Assembly: GCA_038889235.1 (NCBI GenBank) | Contig: JAWAHN010000003.1 | Span: 193,673 to 257,672, forward strand | Direction: 5' to 3' | Origin: Candidatus Jordarchaeales archaeon | GTDB taxonomy: Archaea > Asgardarchaeota > Jordiarchaeia > Jordiarchaeales > Freyrarchaeaceae | DNA: 64,000 bases | Part shown: piece by piece, positions 10,114 to 47,676 of the stretch | How positions within the stretch are numbered: the stretch's first letter is position 1 | Layout: every line of letters begins with the position of its first letter | The notes under the pieces: model-generated | What the model was told of the DNA's origin: nothing | What the model saw: the letters and a program-made list of their open reading frames with translations, nothing else | Databases searched by the model: none | Position numbers and translations under genes: made by a program

Positions 10114-11943
10114 TCACAGGGTGCTCATGAACTTGTCAAGCTGCTGCTCTGTGTCCTCTGACTTTATGAATATTGGCACGTTGGTCATCCCGGTAGCTAT
10201 GTAGCTTGACAGGAGCCATTCTCCAGGCCTAAACTCAAGCGTTCTTTCAAGGATTTCCCGGTCTATCATGAACGTGTTACTGATAAGCCCTCTATCGTAG
10301 GGTCTGGGAAGGGTTCCTATGAAGTACGTGTGGAGCTGTTGTAAAGCTGAAGTGTTGAGGTGGGCTATGCGCTGCGTTACAAGGCAGCCTCCGAGCCCGT
10401 ACTTCCTCCCCTGCCTCAGGAGTCTTTCAACCTCTTCCGAGCAGGCCTTCTCTATCCCTCTCGCCTTGTCAGGGGCTGGGGCGAATTCCTGCGCCTCATC
10501 CCAGACGAAGAGAATGTAAGGCTTAACGCTGAACTCTCTCTTCCTCCTGGATAAAGCATTCCTGATCGTGTTAATTGTCAGCTGCTTGATCGTCTCAGGG
10601 TCTCCTATTGAGAGGCATATGAGTCTGAGGTCACTGTCGAAGAGTTTCTCCACTATGGTTTTCGGGGCTATGCCTCCTGCAACTTCCTCCTCAACCTTCC
10701 TCTCCTTTATCTTTGAGTATATTGTTTTGAGCGAGGAGAGCCAGCCGTAAAGGTTGCTCCTCTCGTAGACCCCGTATGTAACCTTGAAGTATTCCACGTG
10801 TTCGTCTAAATGCCTCACGTACTCCTCGTCGACCTCGTCCTCCTCCACGAACCCCCTAGAAGTCATGTAGCTATCCGTGAACATCCTTATCTCAGCTATG
10901 GCATTCAAGTAGTTCGGCTTGTCGGCGTTTGAGCTCGCTAGGCTTTCCAGGGTTTGCAGGATATCTGCGAAGGTCGGTGTTTCCACGCTGCGCCTCACGA
11001 GGTGTGTGACCCGCCCCAACGAAAGTATTTTTCCAAGCCCCTTGAGGACGCGTGGGTCGTTTTCGTACTTTTTCGGCTTAACTATTGAGAGGTTGAACTC
11101 TTGGGGGGAGTCGACTTCACGCTCCAATACCACGAGCGACGGGATTGAGGGGTCTGCCAGGAGGTCCATTAGGAGGAACGGGTACTCGCATGAAATGTCG
11201 AAGATCACTATCTTGGTGTCCCGCGTGTGTCGCAGTATCTTCCTTATTAGGGTTGCGAGGAGGTTGCTTTTTCCGCCGCCGGTGAAAGCGAATATCCCGA
11301 AGTGATACCTGACAAGCGACTCGAAGTCAACATATATTGGAATCTCCTCGCCGGCGGACTCAAACATTTTCAGGCTGCCTATGTGCCCTCCCTCTCCTTG
11401 GATCTTGTCGATCACCCCTCGGTTGTACATGTTCTTTATCATCTCCCTGTTGAGGATGTAAACCTGTTCGCCTACCACCGGGTATGAGAAACCTCTAACG
11501 TACTCCGCTGACTCCCCTGAAACGACTAGGTCATAGTTTACGGGTATTGCTGAAATGTGTATGGCCATGGTTGCCTTGTCCTTTGTCTCCCAGTCTTGAA
11601 CCGTTTGCTCTATGACCTCGAACTGCATGGGGAAGTATTGGTGCTCCTTAACGCCTAGGAGGCCGAAGTGCTCCGGCCAGAAGCGGGAGAGCTCCATGAG
11701 CGTGTAGCGCTCCACTCCTCCCCCACTTTTAAAGTTCTTCACGGCGAGGAGCATTCCGACGTCTAGAAGCCTCAGCAGCTCCCTGTCGTACTCGACGAGC
11801 ACGGTGCAAGTGTACGGGGCGGAGGTGCCAAGCCGCTCGTCTGATGCGGCTTTAGTAGGCTCAACCTTGCTTAACCTTGCCCTAAAACGCCCGTCGAAAT
11901 CCGTGAAAAAGAGGCTTTTCCTGTCGTCCAGCCTATTCAACAC
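10114..11943 (-). CDS. HerA-like FtsK/HerA-superfamily ATPase (DUF87-type)
   Basis: 609 aa; Walker A FTGGGKSNLLATL, Walker B ILFVWDEAQEF, downstream LVTQR sensor/arginine motif. Confidence 0.65.
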   Translation of the reverse strand: MLNRLDDRKSLFFTDFDGRFRARLSKVEPTKAASDERLGTSAPYTCTVLVEYDRELLRLLDVGMLLAVKNFKSGGGVERYTLMELSRFWPEHFGLLGVKEHQYFPMQFEVIEQTVQDWETKDKATMAIHISAIPVNYDLVVSGESAEYVRGFSYPVVGEQVYILNREMIKNMYNRGVIDKIQGEGGHIGSLKMFESAGEEIPIYVDFESLVRYHFGIFAFTGGGKSNLLATLIRKILRHTRDTKIVIFDISCEYPFLLMDLLADPSIPSLVVLEREVDSPQEFNLSIVKPKKYENDPRVLKGLGKILSLGRVTHLVRRSVETPTFADILQTLESLASSNADKPNYLNAIAEIRMFTDSYMTSRGFVEEDEVDEEYVRHLDEHVEYFKVTYGVYERSNLYGWLSSLKTIYSKIKERKVEEEVAGGIAPKTIVEKLFDSDLRLICLSIGDPETIKQLTINTIRNALSRRKREFSVKPYILFVWDEAQEFAPAPDKARGIEKACSEEVERLLRQGRKYGLGGCLVTQRIAHLNTSALQQLHTYFIGTLPRPYDRGLISNTFMIDREILERTLEFRPGEWLLSSYIATGMTNVPIFIKSEDTEQQLDKFMSTL

Positions 11944-12098
11944 TCACACCCAACTAGAACTTGAAAGGAGAGAGATAAAAACTTAAAGTAGATTCTCTTA
12001 GGAAACGTGAGCCCACCGCTCGTGTTATGCGCGTTAAGCTGCACAGGTTTCTCGGGCGCCAAGTGTGATAAACGGCGGTCGTCAACCGCCTAGACACG

Positions 12099-23499: not shown

Positions 23500-25263
23500 A
23501 TGCCGCACAGCGCTTTACCCTCAAAGGTTCTCTACATAGACCTAACTAGGAGGCGCTTCTGGGTTGAGGACAGAGGCGATCTTTTCGAGGAATACCTTGG
23601 AGGGGCTGGGGTAGCAGCACAGCTGCTTAAGGAGGAGTGCCCTAAAGGGACAGACCCGTTCAGCCCCGACAACCCGATAATATTCGCAGTCGGGCCGCTC
23701 ACCTGTCTTTTCCCTATGGCGTCTAAAACAGTCGCAATGTTCAAGTCACCCTTAACAGGAGAGCTTGGGGAGAGCCATGCCGGTGGCAGGAGCGCCATAG
23801 CCATAAGGTCGGCTGGCTACGGGGCAATAGTTATCAAGGGAGCAAGCGACATGCCCATCTATGTTGCAGTGCACGGGAGCAAGGTGTACTTCAGGGATGC
23901 TGCAGCGTATTGGGGGATGGAGAGCGCGCTGACCGTTGGCAGGGTGATAAGGGAGAACGAGCCGGGGAGTGGTGTGAGGTCGATAATGAGGATAGGAAGG
24001 GCTGGAGAGAAACTGGTGAGGTACGCCATGGTCATGACGGAGACATTCAGGCACTTCGGACGCCTAGGCTTGGGTGCGGTTTTCGGAAGCAAGAAGCTGA
24101 AGGCACTTGTGGTCTCAGGCAAGAACACCGTGGAAGTTCCGAACAAGAAGCTCTTCAGGGATGTTTACGACGAGCTCTTCAAGCTCATGGTCGAGTCAGA
24201 CCTCCTCAAAAAGTACCACGAGATAGGCACGCCCATAAACGTGCTCACGCTTAACGCCCTTAAGGGTCTACCGACACGGAACCTTAAGAGCGGCGAGTTT
24301 GAAGGAGCAGAAGCTATATCAGGCGAGAAGCTAGCAGAGGACTTTTTGGGAAGGAGGGTTGCGTGCGCCCACTGCCCGGTCGCGTGCATACACTTAGCAG
24401 CCCTAAGGGAACCCTACGAGGAGGAACCATACTTCTACAAGACAACATGGGTGTCATACGACTACGAGCTGACATACGCTCTCGGATCCATGCTCGGCAT
24501 ATCAGACACCGTCGGCTTCCTCAAACTGGTCGACACCGTGGAGAAGTACGGTTTAGACGCCATGAGCACCGGGGTTTGCCTAGCGTGGGCGACTGAAGCA
24601 TACGAAAGGAAGCTGATCTCCAAGGAAGACCTTAACGGGCTGGAGCCCAAGTGGGGGGACCACGAAACTTACATAAAGATGACCAAGTTGATCGTGACCC
24701 AGCCCAACGACTTCTACAAGAGCCTCGCCATGGGAGTTGAGGCTGCAGCAACTAAGTACGGGGGGCTGGACTTCGCTCTATCCTTCGGAGGAAACGAGAT
24801 GCCGGGCTACCACACTGGGCCAGCAGCGCACGTAGGCTACCTGACAGGAGCCAGGCACAGCCACCTGGACTCGGCGGGCTACAGCCTAGACGAGAAAACC
24901 ATTGGAGCGACGCCGAGCCCGGAGAAAATAGCGGATGAACTTTTCAAGGAGGAGGCATGGCGCCAAGTTCTTTCAAGCCTTGTAGTCTGCTTCTTCGCCC
25001 GCAGAGTTTACACGCCGGAAAACACGTCTAAAGCACTGCGCGCAGCAGGGGTCGAGAGAAGCGTGGAAGAGCTTACCTCGCTGGGAACTAAAATACTAGC
25101 AGAGAAGTACGAATTTAAGTTCAGGGAAGGCTTCAACCCAGAAAACCTCAGGGTGCCCAAGAGGATCTTTGAAACCCCAACCCCGCACGGGAAAATAAGC
25201 GAGGAAACAGTGAGGAAAGCAGTACAGTTATACGTTGAAAAAGTCAAATCCGTTAAGAAATAG
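23500..25263 (+). CDS. aor: tungsten-type aldehyde:ferredoxin oxidoreductase family protein
   Basis: 587 aa; AOR N-terminal domain pattern (KVLYIDLT..., GGAG) and size. Confidence 0.8.
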   Translation: MPHSALPSKVLYIDLTRRRFWVEDRGDLFEEYLGGAGVAAQLLKEECPKGTDPFSPDNPIIFAVGPLTCLFPMASKTVAMFKSPLTGELGESHAGGRSAIAIRSAGYGAIVIKGASDMPIYVAVHGSKVYFRDAAAYWGMESALTVGRVIRENEPGSGVRSIMRIGRAGEKLVRYAMVMTETFRHFGRLGLGAVFGSKKLKALVVSGKNTVEVPNKKLFRDVYDELFKLMVESDLLKKYHEIGTPINVLTLNALKGLPTRNLKSGEFEGAEAISGEKLAEDFLGRRVACAHCPVACIHLAALREPYEEEPYFYKTTWVSYDYELTYALGSMLGISDTVGFLKLVDTVEKYGLDAMSTGVCLAWATEAYERKLISKEDLNGLEPKWGDHETYIKMTKLIVTQPNDFYKSLAMGVEAAATKYGGLDFALSFGGNEMPGYHTGPAAHVGYLTGARHSHLDSAGYSLDEKTIGATPSPEKIADELFKEEAWRQVLSSLVVCFFARRVYTPENTSKALRAAGVERSVEELTSLGTKILAEKYEFKFREGFNPENLRVPKRIFETPTPHGKISEETVRKAVQLYVEKVKSVKK

Positions 25264-30049: not shown

Positions 30050-33000
30050 TTGCGAGAAGCACATCTGGGTGGTCTAATGGCTGACGGGGTGTTTGCCGGG
30101 CTTTGTCCTTCGTGTGGAGGGGATTTAACGCTCGACGAGGTTGAGTTAATGACGTGCAAGAATACGGGTGCCCGACTATGCATGTTCGACATAGACCAGG
30201 AGTTCAAAGAGTTCCTCGAGTTCTTCAGGGTTGCTGTCGGCGCCAATCCCCGCGCTTTTCAAAGGCTGTGGGCTAGACGTATTTTGAGGGGGGAGAGCTT
30301 CGCCGCTGTAGCTCCAACCGGAACCGGTAAGACCTCCTTCGGCGCGGCTATGGCCCTATTCTTAGCGGGAAGGGGGCTTAAATCGTATTTGATAGTTCCA
30401 ACCACGCTTCTCGTGAGACAGGTTGTAGAAACTCTTAACGAGTTTATGGAGAGAACGGGCGTTAAGGTGGACTTGATATGGTACCACTCCGGGTTGAGGG
30501 GGGAGGAGAAGGAGAGGTTCTTCAGGTCACTCTCAGAAGGGGGCTTCCAGATACTTGTGACCACATCCCAATTTCTTTCAGCCCACTTTAGTAAACTCAA
30601 GGGGAACGTGTTCAACTTTCTTTTCGTCGACGACGTCGACTCCGTCCTTAAGGCTTCGAGGAACGTTGAACGCCTCCTCACGCTCCTAGGCTTCGAGGTG
30701 GTTAACGGCAGATGGATGGGTGAGCCCGCCGGAGTCTTAATGGTTTCAACGGCGACCGCGAAAACTGGTGGTAAAGTTGTGCTTTTCAAGAAGTTGCTAG
30801 ACTTCGACGTAGGTAGCTCGAGCTTCGAGGTAAGGAACATAGAGGACGTGTACTTTGGCAGGAAGAGCCTGGATAACTTATTGAGTACTGTGAAGTTGAT
30901 GGGCGGAGGAGGGATAGTCTACTGTTCATCTTCTGAGGAGGCAGAGCACGTCATGGAGTTCCTAAACGCTAACGGCATCAGGGCTGGTTTCGTCGGAGTT
31001 AGGAGCAAAAAAGACTTCGACGAGTTCTGCCGCGGCGAGCTCGACGTGCTGGTTGGGGCAGCGTACTACTACGGGCTCCTGGTTAGGGGCTTAAATCTCC
31101 CGGAGAGGGTTAGGTACACGGTGTTCTACGGGGCCCCCTTCTTCCGCGTCAGACTAGTAGACTTAGACTCTGCTTCGACGAGGTTACTTAGAGTTCTTGC
31201 CGGAATATTCAAGGACGATGAACGGTTGAAGCCTTACATTGCAAACGTGGAGAAGTACGCGGAGAAAGTGCGCACCATACTCAAGGAAAACTTTCCAGAG
31301 ATGAAGCCGAGCGTTGACGACGTCGTGGTTAGGGAGAACGAAATCCTCCTTCCGGACGTGAGGACGTACATTCAGGGGTCTGGGAGAGCTTCCCGCCTCC
31401 ACGCCGGGGGGATAACGAAGGGTGTATCCATACTGCTCGAGGATGAAAAGCTCGCCGGCGCCTTCATCAAGAGGGCAAGCTACTACGATATCGAGTTCAA
31501 GGGGAAGGATGAGGTCGACTTTGAAAGGTTGAAGGAGGAAGTTGACCGCTCGAGGAGAGAAGTAAGAGTGTCTGAAGTAGAGCTGGTGAGACCCGCCCTC
31601 TTCATAGTTGAGAGCCCGACTAAGGCGAGACAAATAGCACGGTTCTTCGGGCAGCCGAGCATGAAGGTTTTCAGGGACAAGAACGGCGAAGTGGTTCTTA
31701 TCGCCTACGAAGTAGCCACCGGGAAGTACGTAATGACCGTGACCGCCTCCCTGGGGCACATAGTCGACCTGGTTAGGGATAGAGGGTTTTTCGGCGTGCT
31801 CGTCGAGGAAAATCACAGGTATATCCCAGTTTACGGTGCAATCAAGAGGTGCAGGGGTTGCGGTTACCAGTACGTTGGGGAAGGCGTCTGTCCAAGGTGC
31901 GAGGGAAGGGACGTCGGAGCCCCTATTGACTCTAAGTCGAGGATAGAGGTCCTCAGGAGGCTTGCAAAGGATGTTGAGCTAGTCATAGTGGGCACAGACC
32001 CCGACGCTGAAGGAGAGAAAATAGCATGGGACCTAAAGGTCCTCCTCAAGCCGTGCGCGAGGGAAATTAAGAGAGCTGAGTTCCACGAGGTCACGAAGAA
32101 AGCGGTGATTCAAGCACTAAACCAGCTTAGGGATGTGGATGAGAAGCTTGTGGAGGCTCAGATAGTCAGGAGAGTGGAGGACAGGTGGGATGGCTTCTCC
32201 CTCAGCAGAAAACTGTGGGATCGTTTCAGGGACTACAATCTTTCTGCTGGAAGAGTACAGTCGCCAGTCCTAGGCTGGATAATAAAGAGGGCTGAGGAAA
32301 GCAGGAAGAAGAGGCCTGTAACCATTGTGGACGAGCTATCACTGGTCATAGACGGGCTGGCGAGCAGAGAACCCATGCTCGAGATAAAGCTCTTGGAGAG
32401 GAGGGTTGAAAAACAGACTCCACCGCCGCCATACACAACCGACATGCTTCTTAGGGACGCGAACGCCATTCTAAAAATCCCAGTTGACAGGACCATGCAA
32501 CTCGCGCAGGACCTCTTCGAGAACGGCTTGATAACTTACCACAGGACTGATAGCACTAGGGTGAGTGAGAGGGGGCTTGCCGTCGCGAAAGAGTACCTAA
32601 AGGAGGAGTTCACGCCGAGAACGTGGGAGGCTGAAGGAGCACATGAGGCGATAAGGCCGACTAGGCCGCTTGACAGAGTGAGCCTCGTGCGGCTCATCGA
32701 GGAAGGAGTCATAGGGCTGTCCATGGAGCTCACCCCAAGCCACCTCGCACTGTACGACCTCATATTCAGGCGGTTCATGGCTTCGCAGTGCCCACCTGTC
32801 AAAGTGGTCAAGGATGTTTACAGGGTTGTCGCCGACGGTGTTGAAACCACAGAGGTCAGAGTGATCGAAGCCGAGGGTAAAGCATACCAGCTCTACAAAT
32901 ACATGCTACCCCCGATCAAGCCCCCGCTGCCTGAAGGCATGCGGAAGGTTAAAGCGAGAGTGCTACGCCTGCCAAAAGAACCATTGTACACGCAGTCAGA

Positions 33001-33337
33001 TGTCATCAGGCTAATGAAAGAGAAAGGGATAGGTAGACCGTCAACGTACGCCACCATAATCCAAAAGCTCCTCATAAGGGAGTACGTTAGAGAGGTTAAG
33101 AAGGGGAAGCTTATACCCACGGAAAGGGGTGTGGAAGTGTATAACTACCTCAACCAGCACTACGGGAAGTTCATTTCGGAGGAGCGGACGAGGCAGCTTG
33201 AGGAGAAGATGAGCATGATAGAAAAAGGTCTGCTCAACTACCAGGAGGCGCTGGACGAGATATACCACGAAGTGAGGAGCCAGATACTCCCGGTAGGAGA
33301 GGAAGCACGAATACCAACATCTACCTCGCCAGAGTAG
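30050..33337 (+). CDS. rgy: reverse gyrase
   Basis: 1095 aa; N-terminal Zn finger CPSCGGDL, helicase-like APTGTGKT/FVDDVD, C-terminal type IA topoisomerase region; hallmark of hyperthermophiles. Confidence 0.9.
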   Translation: MREAHLGGLMADGVFAGLCPSCGGDLTLDEVELMTCKNTGARLCMFDIDQEFKEFLEFFRVAVGANPRAFQRLWARRILRGESFAAVAPTGTGKTSFGAAMALFLAGRGLKSYLIVPTTLLVRQVVETLNEFMERTGVKVDLIWYHSGLRGEEKERFFRSLSEGGFQILVTTSQFLSAHFSKLKGNVFNFLFVDDVDSVLKASRNVERLLTLLGFEVVNGRWMGEPAGVLMVSTATAKTGGKVVLFKKLLDFDVGSSSFEVRNIEDVYFGRKSLDNLLSTVKLMGGGGIVYCSSSEEAEHVMEFLNANGIRAGFVGVRSKKDFDEFCRGELDVLVGAAYYYGLLVRGLNLPERVRYTVFYGAPFFRVRLVDLDSASTRLLRVLAGIFKDDERLKPYIANVEKYAEKVRTILKENFPEMKPSVDDVVVRENEILLPDVRTYIQGSGRASRLHAGGITKGVSILLEDEKLAGAFIKRASYYDIEFKGKDEVDFERLKEEVDRSRREVRVSEVELVRPALFIVESPTKARQIARFFGQPSMKVFRDKNGEVVLIAYEVATGKYVMTVTASLGHIVDLVRDRGFFGVLVEENHRYIPVYGAIKRCRGCGYQYVGEGVCPRCEGRDVGAPIDSKSRIEVLRRLAKDVELVIVGTDPDAEGEKIAWDLKVLLKPCAREIKRAEFHEVTKKAVIQALNQLRDVDEKLVEAQIVRRVEDRWDGFSLSRKLWDRFRDYNLSAGRVQSPVLGWIIKRAEESRKKRPVTIVDELSLVIDGLASREPMLEIKLLERRVEKQTPPPPYTTDMLLRDANAILKIPVDRTMQLAQDLFENGLITYHRTDSTRVSERGLAVAKEYLKEEFTPRTWEAEGAHEAIRPTRPLDRVSLVRLIEEGVIGLSMELTPSHLALYDLIFRRFMASQCPPVKVVKDVYRVVADGVETTEVRVIEAEGKAYQLYKYMLPPIKPPLPEGMRKVKARVLRLPKEPLYTQSDVIRLMKEKGIGRPSTYATIIQKLLIREYVREVKKGKLIPTERGVEVYNYLNQHYGKFISEERTRQLEEKMSMIEKGLLNYQEALDEIYHEVRSQILPVGEEARIPTSTSPE

Positions 33338-35387: not shown

Positions 35388-36143
35388 TTACGTGGAGGAG
35401 AGGACGGGTTGCCTCTGTCCGGCAAGCTCGCGGAGAAGCCTCAGTACAGCCAGCCCGCTCCTCGTAAGCACATACCTCCCCCTAGGTTTTTCTTGTACTA
35501 CGAAGCCCGCTTCAACAAGCTTGCTGAGGTGAAACTGCAAGTGGCCCCCCCTCATGCTTGTTGCCCGCTCAAGGTCTGCGAAACTTCTTCCTCCCCTTGA
35601 GAGAACTTTGAGAATCCTTATCCGCATAGGACTCGACAACGGGGGTAGTAGTTCTGCAATCTTGTCCTCCTCAACCTCGTCGAAGCCGCCAGGCTCCCCG
35701 AAGAGAAACTTCACGTTACTTACAGGCCGCCTCGATCGCTTGATGAGCTCCTCAACCGCCTTGAAAACCCTAGCAGCGTTTTTCAGGCACTTCTCATCTG
35801 GGCAGTCCTTAACGTGTTTCTCCAAAGCTTCAAGGTGCCTCTTGACTTCCACAAGCGCGTCCTCCACCCCCCTATCTGCAACCACTTGGAGCACTTTAAA
35901 CGCGGCTTTCTCCACCCTTCTAACGCAGAAGTCCCTTAGACTGCAAGTAGAGACCCCAGCCTTGAAAGCGCTCAAACCCTCATTTACCTCCAGAGATATC
36001 TGAGATAACAGCTCCCTCTCAGCCGCCCTCGCGCCAACCACTTCAAGCATAGCGGTAAGTTGGAGGAGGAGGTCGTGAATGGATCTAACATTCCTCAGTA
36101 ATTCATCTAGCTTTATGTTGAGCCCGTTGAGGAGAGACTCCAT
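35388..36143 (-). CDS. ArsR-type wHTH transcription regulator with N-terminal helical domain
   Basis: C-terminal RIRILKVLSRGGRSFADLERA...LQFHLSKLVEAGFV; longest ORF runs to 36272 but would overlap the divergent neighbour, so M44 (MESLLNG) is taken as the start. Confidence 0.5.
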   Translation of the reverse strand: MESLLNGLNIKLDELLRNVRSIHDLLLQLTAMLEVVGARAAERELLSQISLEVNEGLSAFKAGVSTCSLRDFCVRRVEKAAFKVLQVVADRGVEDALVEVKRHLEALEKHVKDCPDEKCLKNAARVFKAVEELIKRSRRPVSNVKFLFGEPGGFDEVEEDKIAELLPPLSSPMRIRILKVLSRGGRSFADLERATSMRGGHLQFHLSKLVEAGFVVQEKPRGRYVLTRSGLAVLRLLRELAGQRQPVLSST

Positions 36144-36261
36144 GCAGTGCACCTCCCCGGGTGTATGGCTAACGATAGGACACTGTACTATATAAAAGTG
36201 TAGTAAAAAGGATACTCTTATATAGAAGTGGGCGCTGTGCTTCGTGTAGTGCTTCCGACGG
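36144..36261. promoter_or_regulatory. divergent promoter region with TATA-like boxes between the ArsR-type regulator and the Fe-S/wHTH gene
   Basis: actatataaaagtg and cttatatagaag elements within 118 bp separating divergent starts. Confidence 0.3.
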
Positions 36262-37377
36262 GTGAGGTGCATGCACCACTCGCACCACTTGGAGGTTTAT
36301 GAGAAGCTGAGGGAGAAGCTCAACAAGGCTCCTATAGGAATGCCTAAAACTGTTAGCGGGGTGGAAAGAGAGATTCTCAGCGTCCTTTTCGACGAGGAGG
36401 AGGCACGGATCGCTGTTCACATGCCCTTCATACCTTTCACTGTTGAGCAGCTGGCGGAGAGGACGGGGAAGAGTGTTGAGTATTTGGAGAAGCTGCTGAA
36501 CGAGATGGCGAGGAAGGGGACTGTTTGGAAGGGTGAGAGAGACGGAAAGGTCCACTACAGGCTTTTCCCCGTTATAGTTGGGCTCTCGGAGATGCCCTTC
36601 CTTCCAGGTCCTGGCAACGACCCGCGTCAAGAGAAGCTTGCCCCACTCTATGCGAGGTATTGGAGAGAGGGATTTCTAGACGAGATTGGAGATAGGAAGT
36701 ATGCTGTGATGAGGGCGCTTCCCGAGAGGAGCGTGGTTAAAGAGGCTGAAATACTTCCGTACGATGATGCCGTGAAGCTTGTTAGGGAGCGTGACTTCCA
36801 CGCGGTCGGCTATTGCCCTTGCAGGATAGTTGCAAGGCTTAACGGGGAGGGGTGTAGGCGCTCCCTGGAGAACTGCCTCCACTTCGGGTCCCTAGCTAGG
36901 TACATGGTGGAGCACGGGTATGCAAGGAGGATAACGGCGGACGAGGCTATCGAAATTCTGAGGAGAGCGAACAGGGAGGGGCTGGTGCACACCACGGAGA
37001 GGAGTAAGGGGCCTATAAGCACAATTTGTAACTGTTGCAGTGACTGCTGCGTGTTTTTCAGGGCAATCCACGAGGCGAAGCATCCAAACACTATAGCGCA
37101 CTCGAGCTACGTTGCAAGCGTTGACCCGTCTAAGTGCATTGCCTGCGGTATTTGCGCGCTCCGCTGCCCTATGAAGGCTGTGAAAGTTAAGGTTAACAGG
37201 AAGCCTGCGAGCGTGAACGTGAAGAAATGCCTTGGATGCGGCGTGTGCGTGCCTACCTGCCCGGTTGAAGCCATAGAGCTTGTTGGAAGAGAAGAGCTCC
37301 CAGACGTACCCGACCATAAGACGTACCTGCTACAGCTACTCGAAGACAGGGGGAAAGACTTCTCATCTCTCCTCTGA
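36262..37377 (+). CDS. Fe-S cluster protein with N-terminal wHTH-like segment and C-terminal 4Fe-4S dicluster domain
   Basis: 371 aa; CNCCSDCC motif plus CIACGICALRCP and CLGCGVCVPTCP; paralogue of 14434..15264. Confidence 0.5.
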   Translation: MRCMHHSHHLEVYEKLREKLNKAPIGMPKTVSGVEREILSVLFDEEEARIAVHMPFIPFTVEQLAERTGKSVEYLEKLLNEMARKGTVWKGERDGKVHYRLFPVIVGLSEMPFLPGPGNDPRQEKLAPLYARYWREGFLDEIGDRKYAVMRALPERSVVKEAEILPYDDAVKLVRERDFHAVGYCPCRIVARLNGEGCRRSLENCLHFGSLARYMVEHGYARRITADEAIEILRRANREGLVHTTERSKGPISTICNCCSDCCVFFRAIHEAKHPNTIAHSSYVASVDPSKCIACGICALRCPMKAVKVKVNRKPASVNVKKCLGCGVCVPTCPVEAIELVGREELPDVPDHKTYLLQLLEDRGKDFSSLL

Positions 37378-37500: not shown

Positions 37501-40500
37501 TCACTTTATGGACGCCAGGTTCCCTATGAGAACCCATGGGAGCTCTTCCGGAGACTTTATGACTTTTAGTATGCTTGCAGCTGAGCACATTTCCTTGAGA
37601 TGTCTGGGTTCTCTGCCCATAGTTATGTAGACGACCCTTATACCCTTGCTCTCCGCTTCCTCTATTGCCACTTTCACGTCTGGTATAGCGTTCTCCTCTT
37701 GCTCGTAGCCTTCTGGTTCCCCGTCCGAGAACACGAACATTATCTTTGTTTTAGCCTCGCGTTTAAGGAGCTCCTCGTAAGAGTACCTTATCGGTGCCCC
37801 CATTCTCGTTAGCCCCCCACTTCTCACGGCTCCAACCCTTTCCTGGATGGTGGCTGTCCACGGCTCATCAAAGTCCTTTGCTATGTATATCCTAGCCTTT
37901 CTGCCCTCCGTGTTGAACGCGTATATCGCGAACTTGTCTCCTAAAGCGTTGCACGCGTCGCCGAAAAGTATCGCTGAGATCTTCAGGCTGTTTATTATCC
38001 TGCTCGTCGACCCACTTGCGTCTATTAAGAGGACTGCGGCGACGTCCCTCGAGTCCCTGTGAATTTTGTCGAATATCCTCTTCTCTCTGCGGTCACAGTG
38101 CGCGTCCACTATGCCGTCCATGTTGAGCTCGCTTCCATCCAGGACGCGCCTCTCCACCTTGAACTTTCTTGGAACTATCTTTTCGAGCTCGTTAATCAAC
38201 TGCTGCCTCACGTAAGAGTACTCGTACAGGGACGGGATCGGGGCGCCCTTCTGGATTCGTATCTCATCCACGTTTATCCAAAGTGAGTACGTCTTAAACT
38301 GCTCATCCCACTCTGGAACCTTCCTCATGCTGTGGGCTTCCTCAGCTTCCTCGATGGTCGTCTTGCACACCCTGGCTGTCAGCTGCTCAGCGTATTTCTC
38401 TTTCAGCTCTTGGAGCTTGTCTGTGCTAAACTCCTCGGATGGGATCACCGACTCCTGGTTCTCAGAAGACTCCATGTCGCTTTCAGCCTGCTCGCTTTCA
38501 GGCGGCTCGGGAATGTAGTCCTTTAGCAGCTCTACGAGTTTGAGAGAGGTTTCAACGGAGTCTAGTACTGTTCCACCCTTAACCCGCTCCGCTTCTTTCA
38601 CCGCCTGCTCAATGAGCTCACTGTACTTTTCCAATTCAATCTTTTCAAGCTCTATGTAGGCTTTCGCCCTTTGAACGGACCACCCTTTCTTCTCGAGCAA
38701 ATCCTGCTTCAGCAACTCTTCTAGGTGTTCGCCTTTAGTCTTGCCGTGAACTATCTTTTCCAGCACTAATTCTAGGAGTGGTGACGGGCTGCTCTGTATG
38801 GTCCTCTTCCTAAGGTTGAAGAGGTTAACCGTCCTGACAAGTGGTTCTAGCTCGCTAAACTCCCTGATCAGGTGGTCTTCGCACCTGGCGTCTTCAAGCG
38901 CCGTGAATATCACCGTGGCAAGCCACGAGTGACCAGTTTTCTTGAATTCCTCGTAAAGCTTTGAGAGTGGGATCGCGAAGCTCCCATACCTTATGTGGCT
39001 TACAGCGTGGAGTGCTCCGTAAAGGTAGAGGAGCATGTTTCTTTCCTTGTCGGGGAACTCGTTTATCACCGATGGTAGGTATATGTGCTTTCCGTCGCTT
39101 CTAGGCCCGTCCTTGCTTGGAACTATTGGTATAGAGCCGCATAGCGGCGTCAACCACGCCATGAGATCGCCTTTCACGTCGTTAAGGTGCAAGCCGCCCT
39201 TGAGCCAGCCCACTGGGTTGGCGAATATAGCGAGAAGCTCACTTTTGTCTAGGTCCGTGATTCTCTTTTCAAGCATCGATATGTAGAGTGACAGTAGGTC
39301 TGGCTCGTCGAACTGCTGCACGGAGGCGAGGAAGGCTTCGCCTAACCCTATCCCTTCAAGCAATTGGAATATTCCAGCAGCCTTCAAAACTTGTTTTACA
39401 CTTTTTATCGGGGCCTGAAGAAGGAAGTCCATGAGGGGCGGTCTCTTCTCTATTATTGACATTACGCTTTTCAGGTGTGTTATCCCTTCTCTCTTGTACT
39501 TGTCAATGAACTTCTTTATGGTCTGGTAGCCCATGCTGCTGAGGTTGCCGAGCCGCCCTATTAGTGAAACTATCTCCTTGCTTGTGACTTCATCTATCTC
39601 CTTGTTTGAAAGGATCTCTTCCAGTCTCTTCCTTACGCTGAAACGCTTATCGTCGCTCAGGACCTTTACTTCATATGTTATGGAGAGTATGTCGCTGCTT
39701 GTAATCTTCTTCAGCTTCGGGTTGGATATTATCTCGAGGATGGTGTTGTAGCCTGTGTCGTTGAGGTACTTGAGCTCCCATATGAGCTCTGCTAGGTCGT
39801 CTGGCTCCACTTGGACTATCTTCGGGTTTAGTATGACGTTTCTTATACGCTCCCTGAAGTCTAGGGGCTTAACGATGCGGTGCCTCCTCAGCCTGCTGGC
39901 TAAGGCGAGCAGGTGTTTCCCCTCTATCTTTGAGAGCACGTTGCTTTCAAGTATCTCTAGCAGTATCTCGTAGCCCTCATCTGTGAGCTCTTCGAACTTG
40001 TCGACGAACTCTAGCAGGTTGTTCTCGTTTCCTATTTCGACCTTGGGGTTACTCAGTATTCTGATGAGGATAGAGTAGTACTTGTCGCCGAGGCGGGAGA
40101 GCTGGCTTATGAGCTTGAGCAGCAACCCACCTTCGAGCGAAGCGACCTTGGAAGCTGAAAGCACCTCTTTAAGCCTGTGCATGACCAAGTTGAAGGTCTC
40201 ATTGCTCATGTCTCTTATCTCCGCTATTATCCAAGCAAGGTTGTTTCCACCTATCTCGGTCACGTGGTTTGACGAGAAAACTTCTAGAAGTCTCTTGTAC
40301 CTGTCCTCCCCCAACAGTTTTAGCCCCCTTATTAGCGAGGGAATGCTGTTCCCCTCGACTTTGTTGACGCTGTCTAGCAATAGCAGTTCGCTCAACCTCT
40401 TCTCCAGGACTTTGATCTCGCTGTCATCGAGCTGCGCGACTTCCGACACTAGGAGGGGGATACAATAACTGCTGATCTGGGTGAACTTACTCCTCGAGAG

Positions 40501-40974
40501 GAGGAACTTCAGGAAATCTTTGTGTTGCTCTGAGAGCTTGCCGCACTCCCTGAAAGTGCTAGGGAGGTCGCGTCCATCTATTGAGCTAACGGCAAGCTCG
40601 CCCAGCATCTGTCTTAGGAAGAACTCCACTGAGACGCTTTTCTCGCCGAGCCTCTCCACCTCGTAGAGCAACCTTATAATGTTTCGTTCACCAACGCTGC
40701 CTACCTTGGGGTTCTCAATTATTCTAGCGATAATGTTTCGTTGAACCCTGGTGAGGTTCTTAAGCTTGTGGGCGAACTCCACAAGCACCTCTAACGAGGT
40801 GAACTTGACTTTCCCGCCTTCAATTATTCTCCTTACATCTTCCACTATTTCCGACCCAAAGGACTGAAGTAAAATATCCAGAGCTCTATCTATGTCAAAT
40901 CCGGAAGAAGTGTTCTCAAACTCTCTTCTCAAGCTCCTAAACCTCTCAAACGTGGCATAAACCTCCTTCAACAC
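37501..40974 (-). CDS. large VWA-domain protein with N-terminal array of ~36-aa helical repeats and acidic linker
   Basis: 1157 aa; C-terminal MIDAS LIDASGSTS...FVFSDGEPEG; repeated LSNPK[VI]...GY..IL modules; acidic stretch PEPPESEQAESDMESSENQE. Confidence 0.6.
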   Translation of the reverse strand: MLKEVYATFERFRSLRREFENTSSGFDIDRALDILLQSFGSEIVEDVRRIIEGGKVKFTSLEVLVEFAHKLKNLTRVQRNIIARIIENPKVGSVGERNIIRLLYEVERLGEKSVSVEFFLRQMLGELAVSSIDGRDLPSTFRECGKLSEQHKDFLKFLLSRSKFTQISSYCIPLLVSEVAQLDDSEIKVLEKRLSELLLLDSVNKVEGNSIPSLIRGLKLLGEDRYKRLLEVFSSNHVTEIGGNNLAWIIAEIRDMSNETFNLVMHRLKEVLSASKVASLEGGLLLKLISQLSRLGDKYYSILIRILSNPKVEIGNENNLLEFVDKFEELTDEGYEILLEILESNVLSKIEGKHLLALASRLRRHRIVKPLDFRERIRNVILNPKIVQVEPDDLAELIWELKYLNDTGYNTILEIISNPKLKKITSSDILSITYEVKVLSDDKRFSVRKRLEEILSNKEIDEVTSKEIVSLIGRLGNLSSMGYQTIKKFIDKYKREGITHLKSVMSIIEKRPPLMDFLLQAPIKSVKQVLKAAGIFQLLEGIGLGEAFLASVQQFDEPDLLSLYISMLEKRITDLDKSELLAIFANPVGWLKGGLHLNDVKGDLMAWLTPLCGSIPIVPSKDGPRSDGKHIYLPSVINEFPDKERNMLLYLYGALHAVSHIRYGSFAIPLSKLYEEFKKTGHSWLATVIFTALEDARCEDHLIREFSELEPLVRTVNLFNLRKRTIQSSPSPLLELVLEKIVHGKTKGEHLEELLKQDLLEKKGWSVQRAKAYIELEKIELEKYSELIEQAVKEAERVKGGTVLDSVETSLKLVELLKDYIPEPPESEQAESDMESSENQESVIPSEEFSTDKLQELKEKYAEQLTARVCKTTIEEAEEAHSMRKVPEWDEQFKTYSLWINVDEIRIQKGAPIPSLYEYSYVRQQLINELEKIVPRKFKVERRVLDGSELNMDGIVDAHCDRREKRIFDKIHRDSRDVAAVLLIDASGSTSRIINSLKISAILFGDACNALGDKFAIYAFNTEGRKARIYIAKDFDEPWTATIQERVGAVRSGGLTRMGAPIRYSYEELLKREAKTKIMFVFSDGEPEGYEQEENAIPDVKVAIEEAESKGIRVVYITMGREPRHLKEMCSAASILKVIKSPEELPWVLIGNLASIK
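39504..40722 (-). repeat. intragenic array of about ten ~36-aa helical repeats (consensus LSNPK[VI]..I....L..LI..L..L.D.GY..IL.I) within the VWA gene
   Basis: Repeats visible in the translation aa ~85-490; coordinates approximate. Confidence 0.45.
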
Positions 40975-41178
40975 TTAAATGTAGTAGAGGGCGTTGCGAG
41001 GAGAAGTAGAACACAGTCGCCGGTAGAGTATTAAAGCCAAGAGAATGGTGGTTCAGGGGTAAGGCTTGTTTCCGGGCGGCCTTCGATGGGCGCCCCACAG
41101 TTCCACGTCCCATAAACCAGAGGAGGGTGCTCGGTATAAATACATTTTGGTAAGAATGCCTCATGTGCCCGCGGCGAC

Positions 41179-42351
41179 TTATATCCCTTCAAGGGTTTCT
41201 AGGGGGATCTTCCTAAGGCCGACGTAGTACGCCACAGCTTCAACTATCTTTCTAACCTCGGTCGCCTGTGAGGGTTTAAGGTTCGCGCTGAGGTTGTCGG
41301 CAACGCGCTCAACGCTCTCGTTCAAGGCGTCTCTTTCACCGAACAACTTGTAGGTTTCAAGGTACGCGTCGATCGCCTTGTGGAGTATTCTCTGCGTTGG
41401 ACACCTTATCTGCCCAGGGGCTAGCTTCTGGTGTAGGAACGAGGAAATGAGGTCTGCAAGCTCCACGTTTTGAAGCTGTATGGTTCCATACTCGTATACT
41501 TGTCTGAGCTTGTCGACGAGGTCGGCTATCTTCCTCATGTTGGAGATGTGCTCCTCGAGCCCAGCTTCCTCCATGAGCTTGTCACTGTACTCCTTAGGCA
41601 CATTCTGAACAGCGACGTACGAAAAGCTCGGCTCTTCGTCAACCTTCTTCTCCTTGAAGTCGCGCCAGCACCCTGAGTCCCACACCATTGGGATAAACTC
41701 TTTCTCACCCAGCCATATTCCACGGTACTGCACTGGGCCGTTCAGTTTCGACGCCTCCATCGCCATCTCCTCAAACTTCTCCTGTTTCACCTTCCTCGTC
41801 TCGACGAGGGAGATCAAAAGTTGAACTTCAACCTCGTGGTACTTGAACTTGAGAGTGTTAAACCTGTCGAGCGCTGGCTCAGGCATCTGCGAGCCTACTC
41901 TCCCGATCTCCGTCGGGTTATAAGATACGATTATCATGTAGTCAGTTCCACCGATTTCCTCGCCGTTTGGAAGCAAGCCACGCCTCCTAGTGTCAAGCCA
42001 GGGGAAAAGCGTTGGCCATATTTCAGCCCTTAAGGCTATAGCCTCGTCGATGTAGAATATTCCCCCCTCTTCTATGACCTTCATATGCCTACTTTTCTCG
42101 AAAACCGTTTCCGAGCCGCCATCCTTACTTCTCAGCTCTCTTCTTCCGAGAATGTCGGCCTCCAGCGTGTCACCACTAGCCATGAGTATGGACAGGGGCT
42201 TGTTAAGTTTCTCTGCTAAGAACTCCACAAACCTGGTCTTACCAGTCCCGGGAAGCCCTTCAAGCGCAAGGTGACCCCTAGCGTAGTAAGTTTGGAGCGC
42301 ACGTATAACCTCGTCCATCTTGCCATCTAAGCTTGAAACGTAAAATACCAT
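41179..42351 (-). CDS. MoxR-family AAA+ ATPase
   Basis: Walker A GLPGTGKT, Walker B FYIDEA, sensor-1/Arg region SYNPTE...ALDRF. Confidence 0.7.
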   Translation of the reverse strand: MVFYVSSLDGKMDEVIRALQTYYARGHLALEGLPGTGKTRFVEFLAEKLNKPLSILMASGDTLEADILGRRELRSKDGGSETVFEKSRHMKVIEEGGIFYIDEAIALRAEIWPTLFPWLDTRRRGLLPNGEEIGGTDYMIIVSYNPTEIGRVGSQMPEPALDRFNTLKFKYHEVEVQLLISLVETRKVKQEKFEEMAMEASKLNGPVQYRGIWLGEKEFIPMVWDSGCWRDFKEKKVDEEPSFSYVAVQNVPKEYSDKLMEEAGLEEHISNMRKIADLVDKLRQVYEYGTIQLQNVELADLISSFLHQKLAPGQIRCPTQRILHKAIDAYLETYKLFGERDALNESVERVADNLSANLKPSQATEVRKIVEAVAYYVGLRKIPLETLEGI

Positions 42352-42529: not shown

Positions 42530-43087
42530 TTACGGTGCCGGGAGGGAGCGCTTCAGCACGAACTCACAGTACTCGTCGCCCTTAGCTTTGCACTTAACTT
42601 CCTCCGATGTGAAGAGCGGCTTCCCGTCTTTTTCAGCGAAGTAGTTTAGAATCCCCTCAGCTACGTACCCCGAGCTGCACGTGGCTGATGGTTGCACCCC
42701 CCTCATCTTAAAATATGCCCCCGTTTCCTCTCCGTAAAGCGAGCTGTAAACCCTGAAAACCACTTGTGATTCGCCGAACTCGATAAGCTCGTTTCTCCCA
42801 AACCCCATGAGGTACTCTAAGGATAAGTAGTACTCTAGAACGCCCTTTGCTCCGAGGGCCTCCATCTTCTCAGCAAGTTTCCTACCATAGTTGACTAGCG
42901 CACGCCTCCTCACTGGCTCCAGCATCTTGCTATAGCGCTCTACGAGGGCGCCCATGAGAGAGACGGAGAAGAGCACCCCGGGGGCAAACACAAACCTACG
43001 CCCTTTAAACGACAAAGCCCCACTTTCGTCTATTTCGATGCCGTCAATGAAGCTTTTTATATCCTTAGGCAGCTCCTCAGCCATCAC
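42530..43087 (-). CDS. V4R-domain protein
   Basis: 185 aa ending in KGDEYCEFVLK; 4-nt overlap with the upstream paralogue. Confidence 0.4.
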   Translation of the reverse strand: MMAEELPKDIKSFIDGIEIDESGALSFKGRRFVFAPGVLFSVSLMGALVERYSKMLEPVRRRALVNYGRKLAEKMEALGAKGVLEYYLSLEYLMGFGRNELIEFGESQVVFRVYSSLYGEETGAYFKMRGVQPSATCSSGYVAEGILNYFAEKDGKPLFTSEEVKCKAKGDEYCEFVLKRSLPAP

Positions 43088-43683
43088 TCCTCACCCTCCA
43101 CCACGAACTCACAGTAATCGTCTCCTCTGGCAAGACACTTAGGCTCTTTAAAGGTAAGTTTAATGGACCCGCGGCCCTGCTTCTCTAGGACAGCCTTCAC
43201 AACCCCAACCCAGTTCGCACCCCAGCCGCACTCGTAGAAGGGGAAGCGTGCAGTGAGATCCTTCACGTTCCTCCTAAGCCACTCCGCAATAAGTTGATTG
43301 TACATTCGAACAACCACCTCCGGCTTACTAAAATCCTTTCTCACCACCTCTGAAACCCCCCACCCTCTCACAGCGCTGTACTCCGCATACGCCTCCAAAA
43401 CTTTCTCCGGAGGAATGCCTTGAGACATAAGTTGGTTTGCCACAGTATAGCCCGTAATTTCCAGGGAAGGGTACATTAGCATTTTCATCGAGGAGCCTAA
43501 GACGTCCATTATTCCCTCGAAAGACAACATGAAAAGTTCCTGATCCATGAATACGTAGCGAACGCCACCATACTTTATTCGCCCCTCACTGTCAAACTCT
43601 ATCTTGCTCTTAAGAGATCTCAGAGCATTCCTCAGGGATTCTAAGGAAACCTTTTCACCAACATTTCTCTCCAAACAAACCAC
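43084..43683 (-). CDS. V4R-domain protein, tandem paralogue
   Basis: 199 aa ending in ARGDDYCEFVVEGEE. Confidence 0.4.
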   Translation of the reverse strand: MVCLERNVGEKVSLESLRNALRSLKSKIEFDSEGRIKYGGVRYVFMDQELFMLSFEGIMDVLGSSMKMLMYPSLEITGYTVANQLMSQGIPPEKVLEAYAEYSAVRGWGVSEVVRKDFSKPEVVVRMYNQLIAEWLRRNVKDLTARFPFYECGWGANWVGVVKAVLEKQGRGSIKLTFKEPKCLARGDDYCEFVVEGEE

Positions 43684-45922: not shown

Positions 45923-46279
45923 TTAGTTAGGTGGGTTTTGCTGGTCTACTGGGAGATATTTTTTGATGAATTTTTTGTAGTGCTCCCATTGTTCTGGTTT
46001 TAGCATGTGGATTTCGAAGACGTCTCCTATACTTTTTCTCACCTCAACCTTGAACCTTAGATCTTTTTCTTTTTCAAGGTTTTCTGTTACGACCGCTATG
46101 TCTATGTCTGAAAGGGTTGGGTGGTAGTTTCCTTCGACAGCTGACCCAAAAACGTATACTTCCGCCTGGCCGAAAAATTTGAGGGCGGCTTCCTTTATTT
46201 TTCTGGCATACTCTAAATAGTTCTCGAAGTACTTTCTTTTCTCTTCTTTTTCTTTTACAAGGTATTTTACGATATCCAT
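45923..46279 (-). CDS. minimal nucleotidyltransferase (MNT), HEPN-MNT module
   Basis: FGSAVEGNYHPTLSDIDIAVV and FEIHMLKPEQWEHY motifs; 13-nt overlap with the upstream HEPN gene. Confidence 0.7.
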   Translation of the reverse strand: MDIVKYLVKEKEEKRKYFENYLEYARKIKEAALKFFGQAEVYVFGSAVEGNYHPTLSDIDIAVVTENLEKEKDLRFKVEVRKSIGDVFEIHMLKPEQWEHYKKFIKKYLPVDQQNPPN

Positions 46280-46647
46280 TCTCTGAACTTCTCCTTGAAC
46301 TTTTTCAGAGTGTTAAGCATTGCTTCGACTTCTCTTTTCGAGTAGTCTCTTGGAAAGTATCTAGAGAGGATGTATGCGTCTTCTATATCTCTAAGAATTA
46401 TCTCGTTGTCTTCGAAGAATGCTTGAAAGTCGTTGTTTAAATTTGCCAGCTCTGAGAATAGCTTGGAGAGCTTATTTGTCCTCGGGAAGTACCCAAGTTC
46501 CTTCGCTAAAATGTACTTCAAGTAGAGTTGAAGGGACTGCTCAATATGAAAGGCGGACAGGTCGTACACGCCCTTATTGAAGAGCTCCACTGCTTCCTCT
46601 TCGAACTTCCTTGCCCTCTCGAGGAAAACCAAGATCTCTTCTCTCAT
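46267..46647 (-). CDS. HEPN-domain protein, HEPN-MNT module
   Basis: AFHIEQSLQLYLKYILAKELGYFPRTNKLSKL HEPN pattern; start placed at the second Met (MREEIL) because the longer ORF N-terminus looks like read-through. Confidence 0.65.
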   Translation of the reverse strand: MREEILVFLERARKFEEEAVELFNKGVYDLSAFHIEQSLQLYLKYILAKELGYFPRTNKLSKLFSELANLNNDFQAFFEDNEIILRDIEDAYILSRYFPRDYSKREVEAMLNTLKKFKEKFREWIS

Positions 46648-47676
46648 GAAGAAGAATTCCCTCCAAAAAAGGTAAGAAGCCCAGAATATCCCATGAAAGT
46701 AGGGATTTTTCATTTATACTCGTTTTGTAGTACGAGGTACTGGGAAACAGGTGGTAGACGGACCGCGATGCGCAACCCACCTTTAGCCGAGATCTCAGGA
46801 CCCACCTCGCAGGGAAGGCAGTTGGGAGGAATGAGGCAGCTTAATGACAGACGGCAAGTTATACGCATCACTCTGTACTAGTAAGGGGCCGTTAGCAGAA
46901 ATTTATTTTTTGTCAAATGTTTAGCTTGCAAGGTTGTTCGTTGCACTCTTAACGCATACCCCCACGCTTAAGCGTCTTGAATGATCACAGGTTGCCCTTC
47001 TCACAGAGGACATTCATTAACGTACCGTCGAAACAACTTATGTCTAGACCCCTCCACACCCCCTTTAACTCAGTTTCTCGACACTTGCTGAGGCACCCTT
47101 TGGGCTTTAAGTTTCATCTCTTTGCCTGCTATTCTTATTGGTGGTTTTTCTTTTTTCGGGTTGTCCTTTGAAGATTATTATGTCGCTTATTGTTGGTAGT
47201 TTTCTGGCTATTGTGTCTAGTGTGTTTAGTATGGTGTCTGCGGCCTTCTTCGGCATCTTGCCGAGCAGCTTCCCCCAATGTGGAAAGCTCCAGAAGAGGG
47301 ATAACAAGTCGTAGTGGCCTGCTTTTCAAAGAAGTTCGTTTTTGCCAGCTACTGTTCAGTCCTTATAAATGTGGCGGCGACACATGTAGCGACGTCTTCG
47401 CCCTCGTTTCCATAAGTTTTCGCCCACGTGACCCCGGAGAGTTTTTCTGTCTTTGAACTACTAGTTGTGGAGGCGTAATTATTATTGCTGTACCACTACC
47501 ATGGGTAGCATAAACGCTAGCACAACCGTTACGGTAGAAACCGTCGCCGAGTATTCTTCTATGTTTAACCTTAAGGTTTCATCCCTTATTGAATTATTGT
47601 GCTACTGGACGGTTGTGCAGTGGTCGTTGCATTTTGACGCAAGTTTTATTTTTAACCATGGCTGGGAGTAAGTGGT

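Follow-up and report, generated by a model that had tools for sequence, protein, structure and literature searches.

Chaperones that couple a MoxR-class AAA+ ATPase to a partner carrying a VWA domain are widespread and, to our knowledge, few of them have a known client; the clients that are known are rubisco, nitric oxide reductase, CO dehydrogenase and chelatases. Two of these systems are especially close to the locus described here. In NorQ/NorD (PDB 9qh4–9qhg; PMC13036017, PMC9976466), the gene for an AAA_5 MoxR-class ATPase lies beside the gene for a VWA adaptor; a finger of NorD sits in the pore of the NorQ ring, the C-terminal tail of NorD lies on the post-sensor-1 loop and a linker is stretched by rotation (PMC13036017). 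The rubisco activase CbbQ/CbbO (5c3c, 6l1q; PMC4660213) is likewise encoded as a two-gene cassette, with a VWA adaptor that binds its client through a MIDAS site (metal-ion-dependent adhesion site). NorD and CbbO have N-terminal parts that show no relationship with one another and that bind different targets (PMC9976466). Here we describe the domain anatomy, family relationships, conservation and genomic context of a gene pair of the same layout in a stretch of 64,000 nucleotides (nt) from Candidatus Jordarchaeales archaeon (assembly GCA_038889235.1, contig JAWAHN010000003.1, positions 193,673 to 257,672, forward strand; the whole stretch is hereafter the window), in which the gene for a 390-amino-acid (aa) ATPase is followed by the gene for an 1157-aa VWA protein with a long N-terminal repeat array.

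We consider it probable, on balance, that this pair is a dedicated, vertically inherited housekeeping AAA+/VWA remodelling chaperone of the CbbQ/O–NorQ/D kind. An earlier note, written from the letters of the window, had described an AAA+ gene with MoxR-type motifs, an 1157-aa protein downstream on the same strand, a VWA/MIDAS domain at the C terminus of that protein and a chaperone relationship of the CbbQ/O–NorQ/D type, and all four points stand: both open reading frames (ORFs) are present on the minus strand (Table 1), and the motifs, domains and profile, alignment and structural matches given below bear out the rest. The housekeeping character is suggested by a fixed number of 12 repeats, a single chromosomal slot kept in five loci and the lack of any defence or viral signal. 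An identical public protein is annotated as 'VWA domain-containing protein' [Candidatus Jordarchaeales archaeon], and the window is chromosomal DNA from a member of the Asgard class Jordarchaeia.

A complete adaptor of the NorD/CbbO type occupies the final ~565 residues of the 1157-aa protein. In direct alignment, aa 878–1147 match NorD of Jhaorihella (E = 5e-21) and of Paracoccus (2e-17), and a weak second NorD match falls on the DG..(I/L)xLP motif of the NorD N-domain. More distant relatives came from a profile search run exhaustively over 1.84 billion cluster representatives, which found 3072 proteins at E ≤ 1e-3, the best 150 of which were listed. Because the single alignments of four of these (P0062, P0067, P0117 and P0129) run from about profile position 570–597 to the end, the shared module starts at about aa 590–620. 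A profile of this module with 50 relatives aligns with residues 35–643 of NorD (9qhd_G) at E = 4.7e-97, as against 2.5e-6 for CobT (9uka). The parts also follow one another as they do in NorD: a helical N-domain with the DG..(I/L)xLP motif, a disordered linker, a PEWD finger, a MIDAS-bearing VWA domain and a conserved C-terminal tail. The Jordarchaeales adaptor is larger than NorD (1157 versus ~640 aa), some ~590 additional residues, the 12 repeats among them, lying at its N terminus.

Structure prediction and residue conservation agree with this assignment. An AlphaFold model of aa 495–1157 (51-sequence alignment; mean predicted local distance difference test (pLDDT) score 82) places in order the N-domain (aa ~594–824), a disordered stretch (~833–877), a hairpin (880–906) and the VWA fold; pLDDT drops below 50 at aa 833–852 and 860–877, in the acidic linker, and reaches ~85–92 in the hairpin, whose strands span aa 880–890 and 895–906. 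When this model was compared with the PDB using Foldseek, the top matches were finger-containing NorD VWA chains (E from 7e-17, for 9qh6_G, to 4e-9), followed by the MIDAS domain of human MDN1 (8ql1, 8e-9) and ordinary VWA domains (~1e-6). Pfam places the VWA domain at aa 981–1132 (E = 4e-7). Its MIDAS residues D985, S987 and S989 (D985-x-S987-x-S989, encoded at 38008..38022) and D1084 are invariant both in 30 and in 51 distant relatives, and T1056 sits where the MIDAS threonine is expected, as judged by motif position alone. In the finger, near-invariance holds for E888 in 30 relatives and for E888, W889 and D890 in 51; the C-terminal LP motif is likewise nearly invariant among distant relatives, as are L633, P634, N646 and Y650 of the N-domain in 30 relatives. 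Among orthologues, 90% of the columns of the VWA domain and 68% of those of the NorD-type N-domain are invariant.

The ATPase carries the expected catalytic motifs, read here from the translation: Walker A GLPGTGKT (aa 32–39), Walker B IFYIDE (aa 98–103), sensor 1 N145 and an arginine finger, R163, in ALDRF. Pfam recognizes an AAA_5 domain (E = 3.5e-20). In a PDB sequence search the best matches were CbbQ (5c3c, 2.4e-16) and NorQ (9qh4, 2.9e-15), ahead of midasin AAA modules (1.8e-9) and the generic MoxR protein 2r44 (0.008), and this ranking assigns the core, as far as sequence can tell, to the CbbQ/NorQ branch of the MoxR class. By its position in the sequence, the segment at aa ~66–86 may be the helix-2 insert, whose loops would line the pore of a hexameric ring. 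The ATPase orthologues are 86–89% identical and, across five of them, aa 1–170 are almost invariant, aa ~185–265 vary and aa 270–390 are again highly conserved.

N-terminal to the adaptor module, the VWA protein consists largely of 12 head-to-tail two-helix repeats, which make up ~38% of its length. Measured from an SNPK-like anchor, the units are 35, 39, 35, 39, 35, 39, 35, 35, 39, 35, 39 and 38 aa long, in this order, with the consensus SNPKVKSIDGRSLLSLISELKRLSDEGYSILKERLREL. Scored with a hidden Markov model (HMM) of the other eleven, each of the 12 units beats all 40 of its own shuffles, and BLOSUM autocorrelation over the N-terminal 556 residues peaks at lag 74, which equals 35 + 39 (z = 10), and then at 35 and 39. 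The unit HMM finds exactly 12 units in each orthologue and none in any other ORF of the window. A self-BLAST search for internal repeats returned the diagonal alone. Tandem Repeats Finder reported no relevant DNA-level tandem repeat in the array; the units are therefore old and diverged. Six orthologues of the VWA protein (72–81% identical) have the same 12 units without a single indel, and the array is full length and free of indels in three metagenome loci as well, which together with the Tandem Repeats Finder result rules out a recent tandem duplication of DNA or a repeat number that varies between strains. Conservation among orthologues climbs along the protein from the arm to the VWA domain, with 36–51% invariant columns in units R1–R7 and 64–77% in R8–R12, and no orthologue has a gap in the array.

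Searches for the arm in domain and structure libraries were negative. Pfam at E ≤ 10 returned sub-threshold matches alone (RasGEF_N_2 at 0.0033; the ARM-like GUN4_N at 0.12), a PDB profile search with the arm found nothing, and the units had no significant profile or structural match to the HEAT/ARM, TPR, PPR, PUF, TALE, Sel1 or PBS-lyase HEAT-like families. An AlphaFold model of aa 1–540 (four sequences; mean pLDDT 64) shows two helices and a short extended segment in each unit. These results refine what the earlier note had said of this region. It had counted ~10 tandem helical repeats of 36 aa in the N-terminal third of the protein: the repeats are real and N-terminal, and there are 12 of them, of 35/39 aa, over somewhat more than a third of the sequence. 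The acidic linker that it placed between repeats and VWA domain exists, preceded by a connector of ~100 aa and the N-domain of ~230 aa. Its suggestion of a HEAT-, PBS-lyase- or TPR-like fold found no match in the Pfam, PDB profile and Foldseek checks, and variation of repeat number between strains, which it proposed to look for, does not occur among the orthologues.

The distribution of the pair is narrow. Among the matches listed from the exhaustive search, the VWA protein is represented by one full-length cluster and a 179-aa fragment; the next match after its own cluster (E = 5.5e-44) covers the VWA region alone, and distant relatives align from about profile position 568–597 onward. These distant relatives surfaced in the exhaustive search only; word-index searches, one of them with a 30-sequence alignment, returned six or seven Jordarchaeales proteins and nothing else. 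A scan of 185,579 species genomes likewise found a few Jordarchaeales lineages alone, the nearest genome records being Candidatus Jordarchaeum sp. LHC_1308 and a metagenome-assembled genome labelled Thermoproteota S9B3_HD70, and a metagenome scan with the arm alone recovered the same few lineages, which are 63–81% identical over the arm and all have it at full length. Judged by sequence, the repeats thus appear to lack any detectable relative beyond the Jordarchaeales clade among the matches listed. No relative was found in viral contigs and the ATPase had no match among archaeal virus records; the pair is chromosomal, not viral.

Unique in sequence, the arm is recurrent as an architecture. 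Among the 148 best non-Jordarchaeales representatives of the 3072 matches, 53 are at least 900 aa long and 34 at least 1000 aa, and in the giant relatives the extra length sits N-terminal to the DG..IYLP motif. They include NorD/CbbO-like VWA proteins of 1000–1560 aa (P0018, P0021, P0022, P0024, P0096, P0099, P0141 and P0149; the P0024 cluster contains Smithella sp. NLN39179.1). Their arrays share the motif LLEKSPDLIERVGYEGL..IA.L and show a 37/41/78-residue periodicity, with z up to 21, in P0018, P0021, P0024, P0096 and P0149 among others; no Pfam annotation falls in the N-terminal extensions of the seven proteins scanned. Like the Jordarchaeales protein, these relatives (Smithella sp. NLN39179.1, P0018, P0021 and the archaeal P0008–P0010) join a long N-terminal helical extension to a NorD-type module, several with periodic arrays of two unit lengths, and their VWA genes, where placed in contigs, lie beside CbbQ-type ATPase genes. 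Two giant VWA genes directly follow such an ATPase gene, the first on an archaeal contig that encodes Alba and the second on a bacterial contig of 297 kb, with no obvious client gene on either. Unlike the Jordarchaeales pair, their ATPases keep the CbbQ_C domain (seen at loci L010 and L011), and their VWA modules are ~20–29% identical to the Jordarchaeales one. The earlier note had called the array an unusual addition, which holds for its sequence and not for the architecture. We found no paper in the literature searched that describes giant NorD-like forms with such arms.

The two kinds of array share a length grammar, with two unit lengths 4 aa apart (37/41 in the relatives, 35/39 here), which hints at a link between them and may reflect either common origin or convergence. 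Homology of the Jordarchaeales array with the other giant arrays was not borne out at the level of sequence: the unit HMM had zero matches in them, hhalign of array against sequence gave probabilities ≤1%, and profile-versus-profile hhalign of super-repeats gave 0.9%.

Table 1. Coordinates of the ATPase–VWA locus and its parts, in positions of the window (aa, residues of the encoded protein).
Feature	Position	Strand	Basis
AAA+ ATPase, CbbQ/NorQ-type (MoxR class) core by sequence and divergent C-terminal half, 390 aa	41179..42351	-	Pfam AAA_5, PDB matches
AAA_5 core, aa 27–164	41860..42273	-	Pfam; almost every residue invariant in 5 orthologues
ATPase C-terminal half, aa 172–390: lid with variable ~80-aa insertion, then highly conserved tail	41182..41838	-	
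ATPase–VWA spacer, TATA/BRE-like block and 19-nt block	40975..41178	-	alignment with L003 and L001
VWA protein, repeat arm and complete NorD/CbbO-type adaptor, 1157 aa	37501..40974	-	profile, model, Pfam
Repeat arm, 12 head-to-tail two-helix repeats, aa 51–493	39496..40824	-	HMM, autocorrelation, model
Helical connector from repeat array to NorD-type module, aa 494–593	39196..39495	-	model helices, pLDDT ~53–83
NorD/CbbO-type helical N-domain, aa 594–824, with DGxxIYLP motif at aa 627–634	38503..39195	-	pLDDT mostly 80–97
Disordered acidic linker, aa 825–878, ~30% D+E	38341..38502	-	model, composition
Beta-hairpin 'finger' from PEWD motif, aa 879–906	38257..38340	-	model strands, conservation
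VWA domain, aa 907–1157, with conserved C-terminal LP...L tail	37504..38256	-	Pfam, MIDAS columns, Foldseek
Two V4R-domain genes, 199 and 185 aa, overlapping by 4 nt, upstream of ATPase	42530..43683	-	Pfam V4R

The VWA gene begins 204 nt downstream of the ATPase gene. Both ORFs lie in one reading frame and are separated by several stop codons (a TAA, a TGA and further stops), so they are separate genes, and a fusion or read-through product is ruled out. Two blocks of the spacer are conserved in alignment with L003 and L001: a TATA/B-recognition-element (BRE)-like block at 41135..41151, ACCAAAATGTATTTATA, and, ~20 nt downstream of it, a 19-nt block at 41094..41112, TGGGACGTGGAAcTGTGGG, which occurs once in the 64-kb window. 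These conserved blocks suggest that the VWA gene has its own promoter, and by sequence the spacer is probably its promoter and leader. There was no Rfam match to an RNA element in the spacer, with weak covariation support from three sequences, and neither tRNA genes (ARAGORN) nor Rfam families at the gathering threshold were found in the 64-kb window. Where translation of the VWA gene starts is uncertain, because conservation among orthologues begins only at about aa 33, and callers pick differing TTG or ATG codons in the orthologues; all three species share the in-frame peptide TFERFRSL(R/K)R, without a canonical start codon upstream of it in L003 and L001.

Around the pair, 5/5 loci compared share the gene order ATPase, VWA, ..., 176-aa phosphoribosyltransferase, and the ATPase and VWA genes are adjacent in all orthologous loci. 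The other neighbours, which the earlier note had proposed to look at in orthologues, differ between loci. Upstream, the window, L014 and L003 have a 221-aa phosphoribosyltransferase gene and two V4R genes, which L007 and L015 lack at the locus. In this clade (72% identity; L007, L015), a HEPN/nucleotidyltransferase-like pair lies instead between the ATPase gene and genes for DUF998 and asparagine-synthase proteins. Between the VWA and 176-aa phosphoribosyltransferase genes, within 35388–37377, the window and L014 alone have a gene for a 294-aa ArsR-type helix-turn-helix protein (-) and, at 36262..37377 (+), one for a 371-aa protein that has a weak Rrf2-like N terminus and, at its C terminus, a 2x[4Fe-4S] ferredoxin domain (Fer4); L003 and L006 keep a 42%-identical remnant of the ferredoxin part alone. 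The window shows no sign of a mobile element or defence island.

The V4R domain is a prokaryotic relative of the TRAPP Bet3 fold. The two V4R proteins each end in a C-x4-D-x2-C motif, KCLARGDDYCEF and KCKAKGDEYCEF, and their genes are co-oriented with the ATPase–VWA pair in 3/5 loci. They are facultative neighbours: an obligate partnership was rejected, since they are missing at the locus in the 72% clade and the 116-aa pair that L001 has upstream does not belong to V4R. The window also has a HEPN and nucleotidyltransferase pair of toxin–antitoxin type at 45923..46713 (-). A pair of 116-aa genes that looks similar by eye lies in the 72% clade (7374–8064 of L001), immediately upstream of the ATPase gene and thus at a different position from the pair in the window. 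A full-length reverse gyrase gene at 30050..33337 (+; TIGR01054, 1185 bits) points to a hyperthermophilic host; in the corresponding place, L003 (~11496–11951) and L006 have just a 52%-identical match to the first ~150 residues of reverse gyrase.

By analogy with NorQD, the 390-aa ATPase would form a hexameric ring and one 1157-aa adaptor would insert its PEWD hairpin finger into the ring pore, with its conserved C-terminal tail docked on the ring. The MIDAS site would grip an acidic residue of a client protein, and ATP-driven rotation of the VWA domain might then stretch the acidic linker against the N-domain so that the client is pried open; the purpose could be, for instance, to load a cofactor or metal, to release an inhibitor or to assemble a complex. 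The 12-unit array would most likely act as a second arm, extended in shape, that binds clients or serves as a scaffold and that determines client specificity. We infer this enlarged role from NorD and CbbO, whose N-terminal parts are unrelated and bind different clients (PMC9976466).

Several observations weigh against this picture of a housekeeping chaperone. The ATPase is longer than NorQ (390 versus ~270 aa) and lacks a recognisable CbbQ_C domain, with no Pfam match to PF08406 at E ≤ 0.01; its C-terminal 219 aa have no PDB sequence match, and its C-terminal half has no BLAST similarity to the CbbQ C termini from L010 and L011. As this half matches nothing known, the details of docking may differ from those of NorQD. 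Ring formation, finger-in-pore docking and linker stretching are all carried over from the solved NorQD complex, and the binding role of the arm is purely inferred. The arm model has a predicted template modelling score of 0.38, so its overall shape is unreliable, and a Foldseek search of the PDB with this low-confidence model gave no match (best E 1.5). Finally, the window and the 10-kb flanks of the orthologues contain no nor, rubisco, cox or cobN genes. With no linkage to norCB or to cbbLS and carboxysome genes, the adaptor is neither a NorD nor a CbbO in the functional sense. Its N-terminal region is unrelated to that of CbbO, and its host, an anaerobic hyperthermophilic Asgard archaeon, is another difference from NorQ/NorD.

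Other explanations differ mainly in the client that they propose. A narrower form of the housekeeping chaperone, possible although we doubt it, is a metal- or cofactor-insertion chaperone or chelatase motor (NorQD-, CoxDE- or CobST-like) for a metalloenzyme of anaerobic hyperthermophiles. It would fit the nearest solved relatives, NorD, which acts in iron insertion, and more weakly CobT, as well as the phage CobT-like VWA proteins that match the whole module at ~E 1e-18; iron–sulfur and tungsten enzymes are also encoded in the wider neighbourhood, namely the Fer4 protein and an aldehyde:ferredoxin oxidoreductase (23500..25263). However, no metalloenzyme candidate is consistently adjacent to the pair, the Fer4 gene being confined to the window and L014 apart from the remnants in L003 and L006, and genes of the CobN-like, Nor or Cox kinds were not seen either. 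CbbQO, which is just as close a relative, removes inhibitors and does not insert metal. Compared with CobS/CobT in particular, the VWA protein has no Pfam match to CobT_C and there is no CobN-like gene among the window ORFs scanned. We think it unlikely that the pair instead assembles or remodels a complex of the two V4R proteins encoded upstream. The order V4R–V4R–ATPase–VWA is found on one strand in the window, L014 and L003/L005, and the overlap of the two V4R genes by 4 nt also speaks for this idea, but in the 72% clade (L001/L007, L015) the locus lacks the V4R pair and has a HEPN/nucleotidyltransferase-like pair in its place. Spacers of ~180–200 nt lie between the V4R, ATPase and VWA genes, the giant relatives in L010 and L011 have no linked V4R gene, and the literature searched contained no paper that links V4R to AAA+/VWA proteins.

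Two further readings, to both of which we give very little credence, invoke defence and ribosome assembly. MoxR–vWA couples are the cores of anti-virus conflict systems, in which the third component is VMAP, iSTAND, FtsH or a beta-propeller protein (Kaur et al. 2020, PMC7159879); the earlier note had raised this option for the pair, and HEPN–nucleotidyltransferase toxin–antitoxin-type genes lie nearby in the window and in L001. Yet Pfam, NCBIfam and PADLOC showed none of these third components and no effector in the pair or its neighbours; PADLOC assigned neither the VWA nor the V4R proteins to a family and gave nothing past weak P-loop-level matches of the ATPase to IetA; and a defence system was rejected after PADLOC, viral contig and phage record searches all proved negative. 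Moreover, the VWA domain groups with NorD/CbbO rather than with the CoxE-derived conflict clade, the number of repeats is constant, both proteins are strongly conserved and their location is chromosomal and syntenic. The p618/p892 proteins of Acidianus two-tailed virus (ATV) are also an archaeal MoxR-type ATPase with a large VWA partner, and the earlier note took a p618/p892-type housekeeping chaperone, with one repeat count everywhere and no association with variable regions, as the outcome that would speak against its reading. The repeat count is indeed constant and no link to variable regions was seen, but the pair is not especially close to p618/p892: p892 (ATV ORF892) is a distant structural match (rank 45, E = 1e-6, 13% identity), and the Jordarchaeales pair is chromosomal. 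As for ribosomes, the pair could remodel some very large assembly, for instance a pre-ribosomal particle, in the manner of midasin, and would then be an analogue or relative of eukaryotic Rea1/MDN1 in Asgard archaea. Midasin shares AAA_5-type modules and the order of helical region, D/E-rich linker and finger-bearing MIDAS domain; its AAA modules match the ATPase core at 1.8e-9, the MDN1 MIDAS domain is the second-best structural match after NorD, and the host is an Asgard archaeon. This order of parts is, however, general to the NorD/CbbO/CobT family, bacterial members included, and CbbQ/NorQ and NorD score far better for both proteins, with midasin 6–8 orders of magnitude below them. The VWA protein has no sequence match to the MDN1 MIDAS domain at E ≤ 1, and no ubiquitin-like (UBL)-domain partner or ribosome-biogenesis gene is linked to the pair. 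Midasin is a single polypeptide of ~5000 aa with six fused AAA modules, whereas the Jordarchaeales pair has one AAA module on a separate protein, and among the matches listed and in the genome scan the family was found in one small order and in no other Asgard lineage. The Asgard host and the formal resemblance to midasin have some evolutionary appeal, and the data do not support a special relationship.

A broader proposal, which we rate as quite improbable, is that the giant CbbO/NorD-like adaptors with arms of alternating unit length (35/39 and 37/41) form one ancient, unrecognised class of AAA+ remodellers, in mechanism a prokaryotic counterpart of midasin. In such a class, a very large client (a ribonucleoprotein, say, or a multi-enzyme complex) would be held by the long solenoid arm during rotation of the MIDAS domain, and the Asgard member would be a tractable small model for midasin's ancestor, or a relative of it. 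Under the housekeeping chaperone reading that we prefer, the pair is a compact and strongly conserved archaeal example of the uncharacterised giant NorD/CbbO-like adaptors, with a 12-unit arm whose sequence family is in no domain library searched, and the identification of a single client would probably explain the whole class of giant adaptors.

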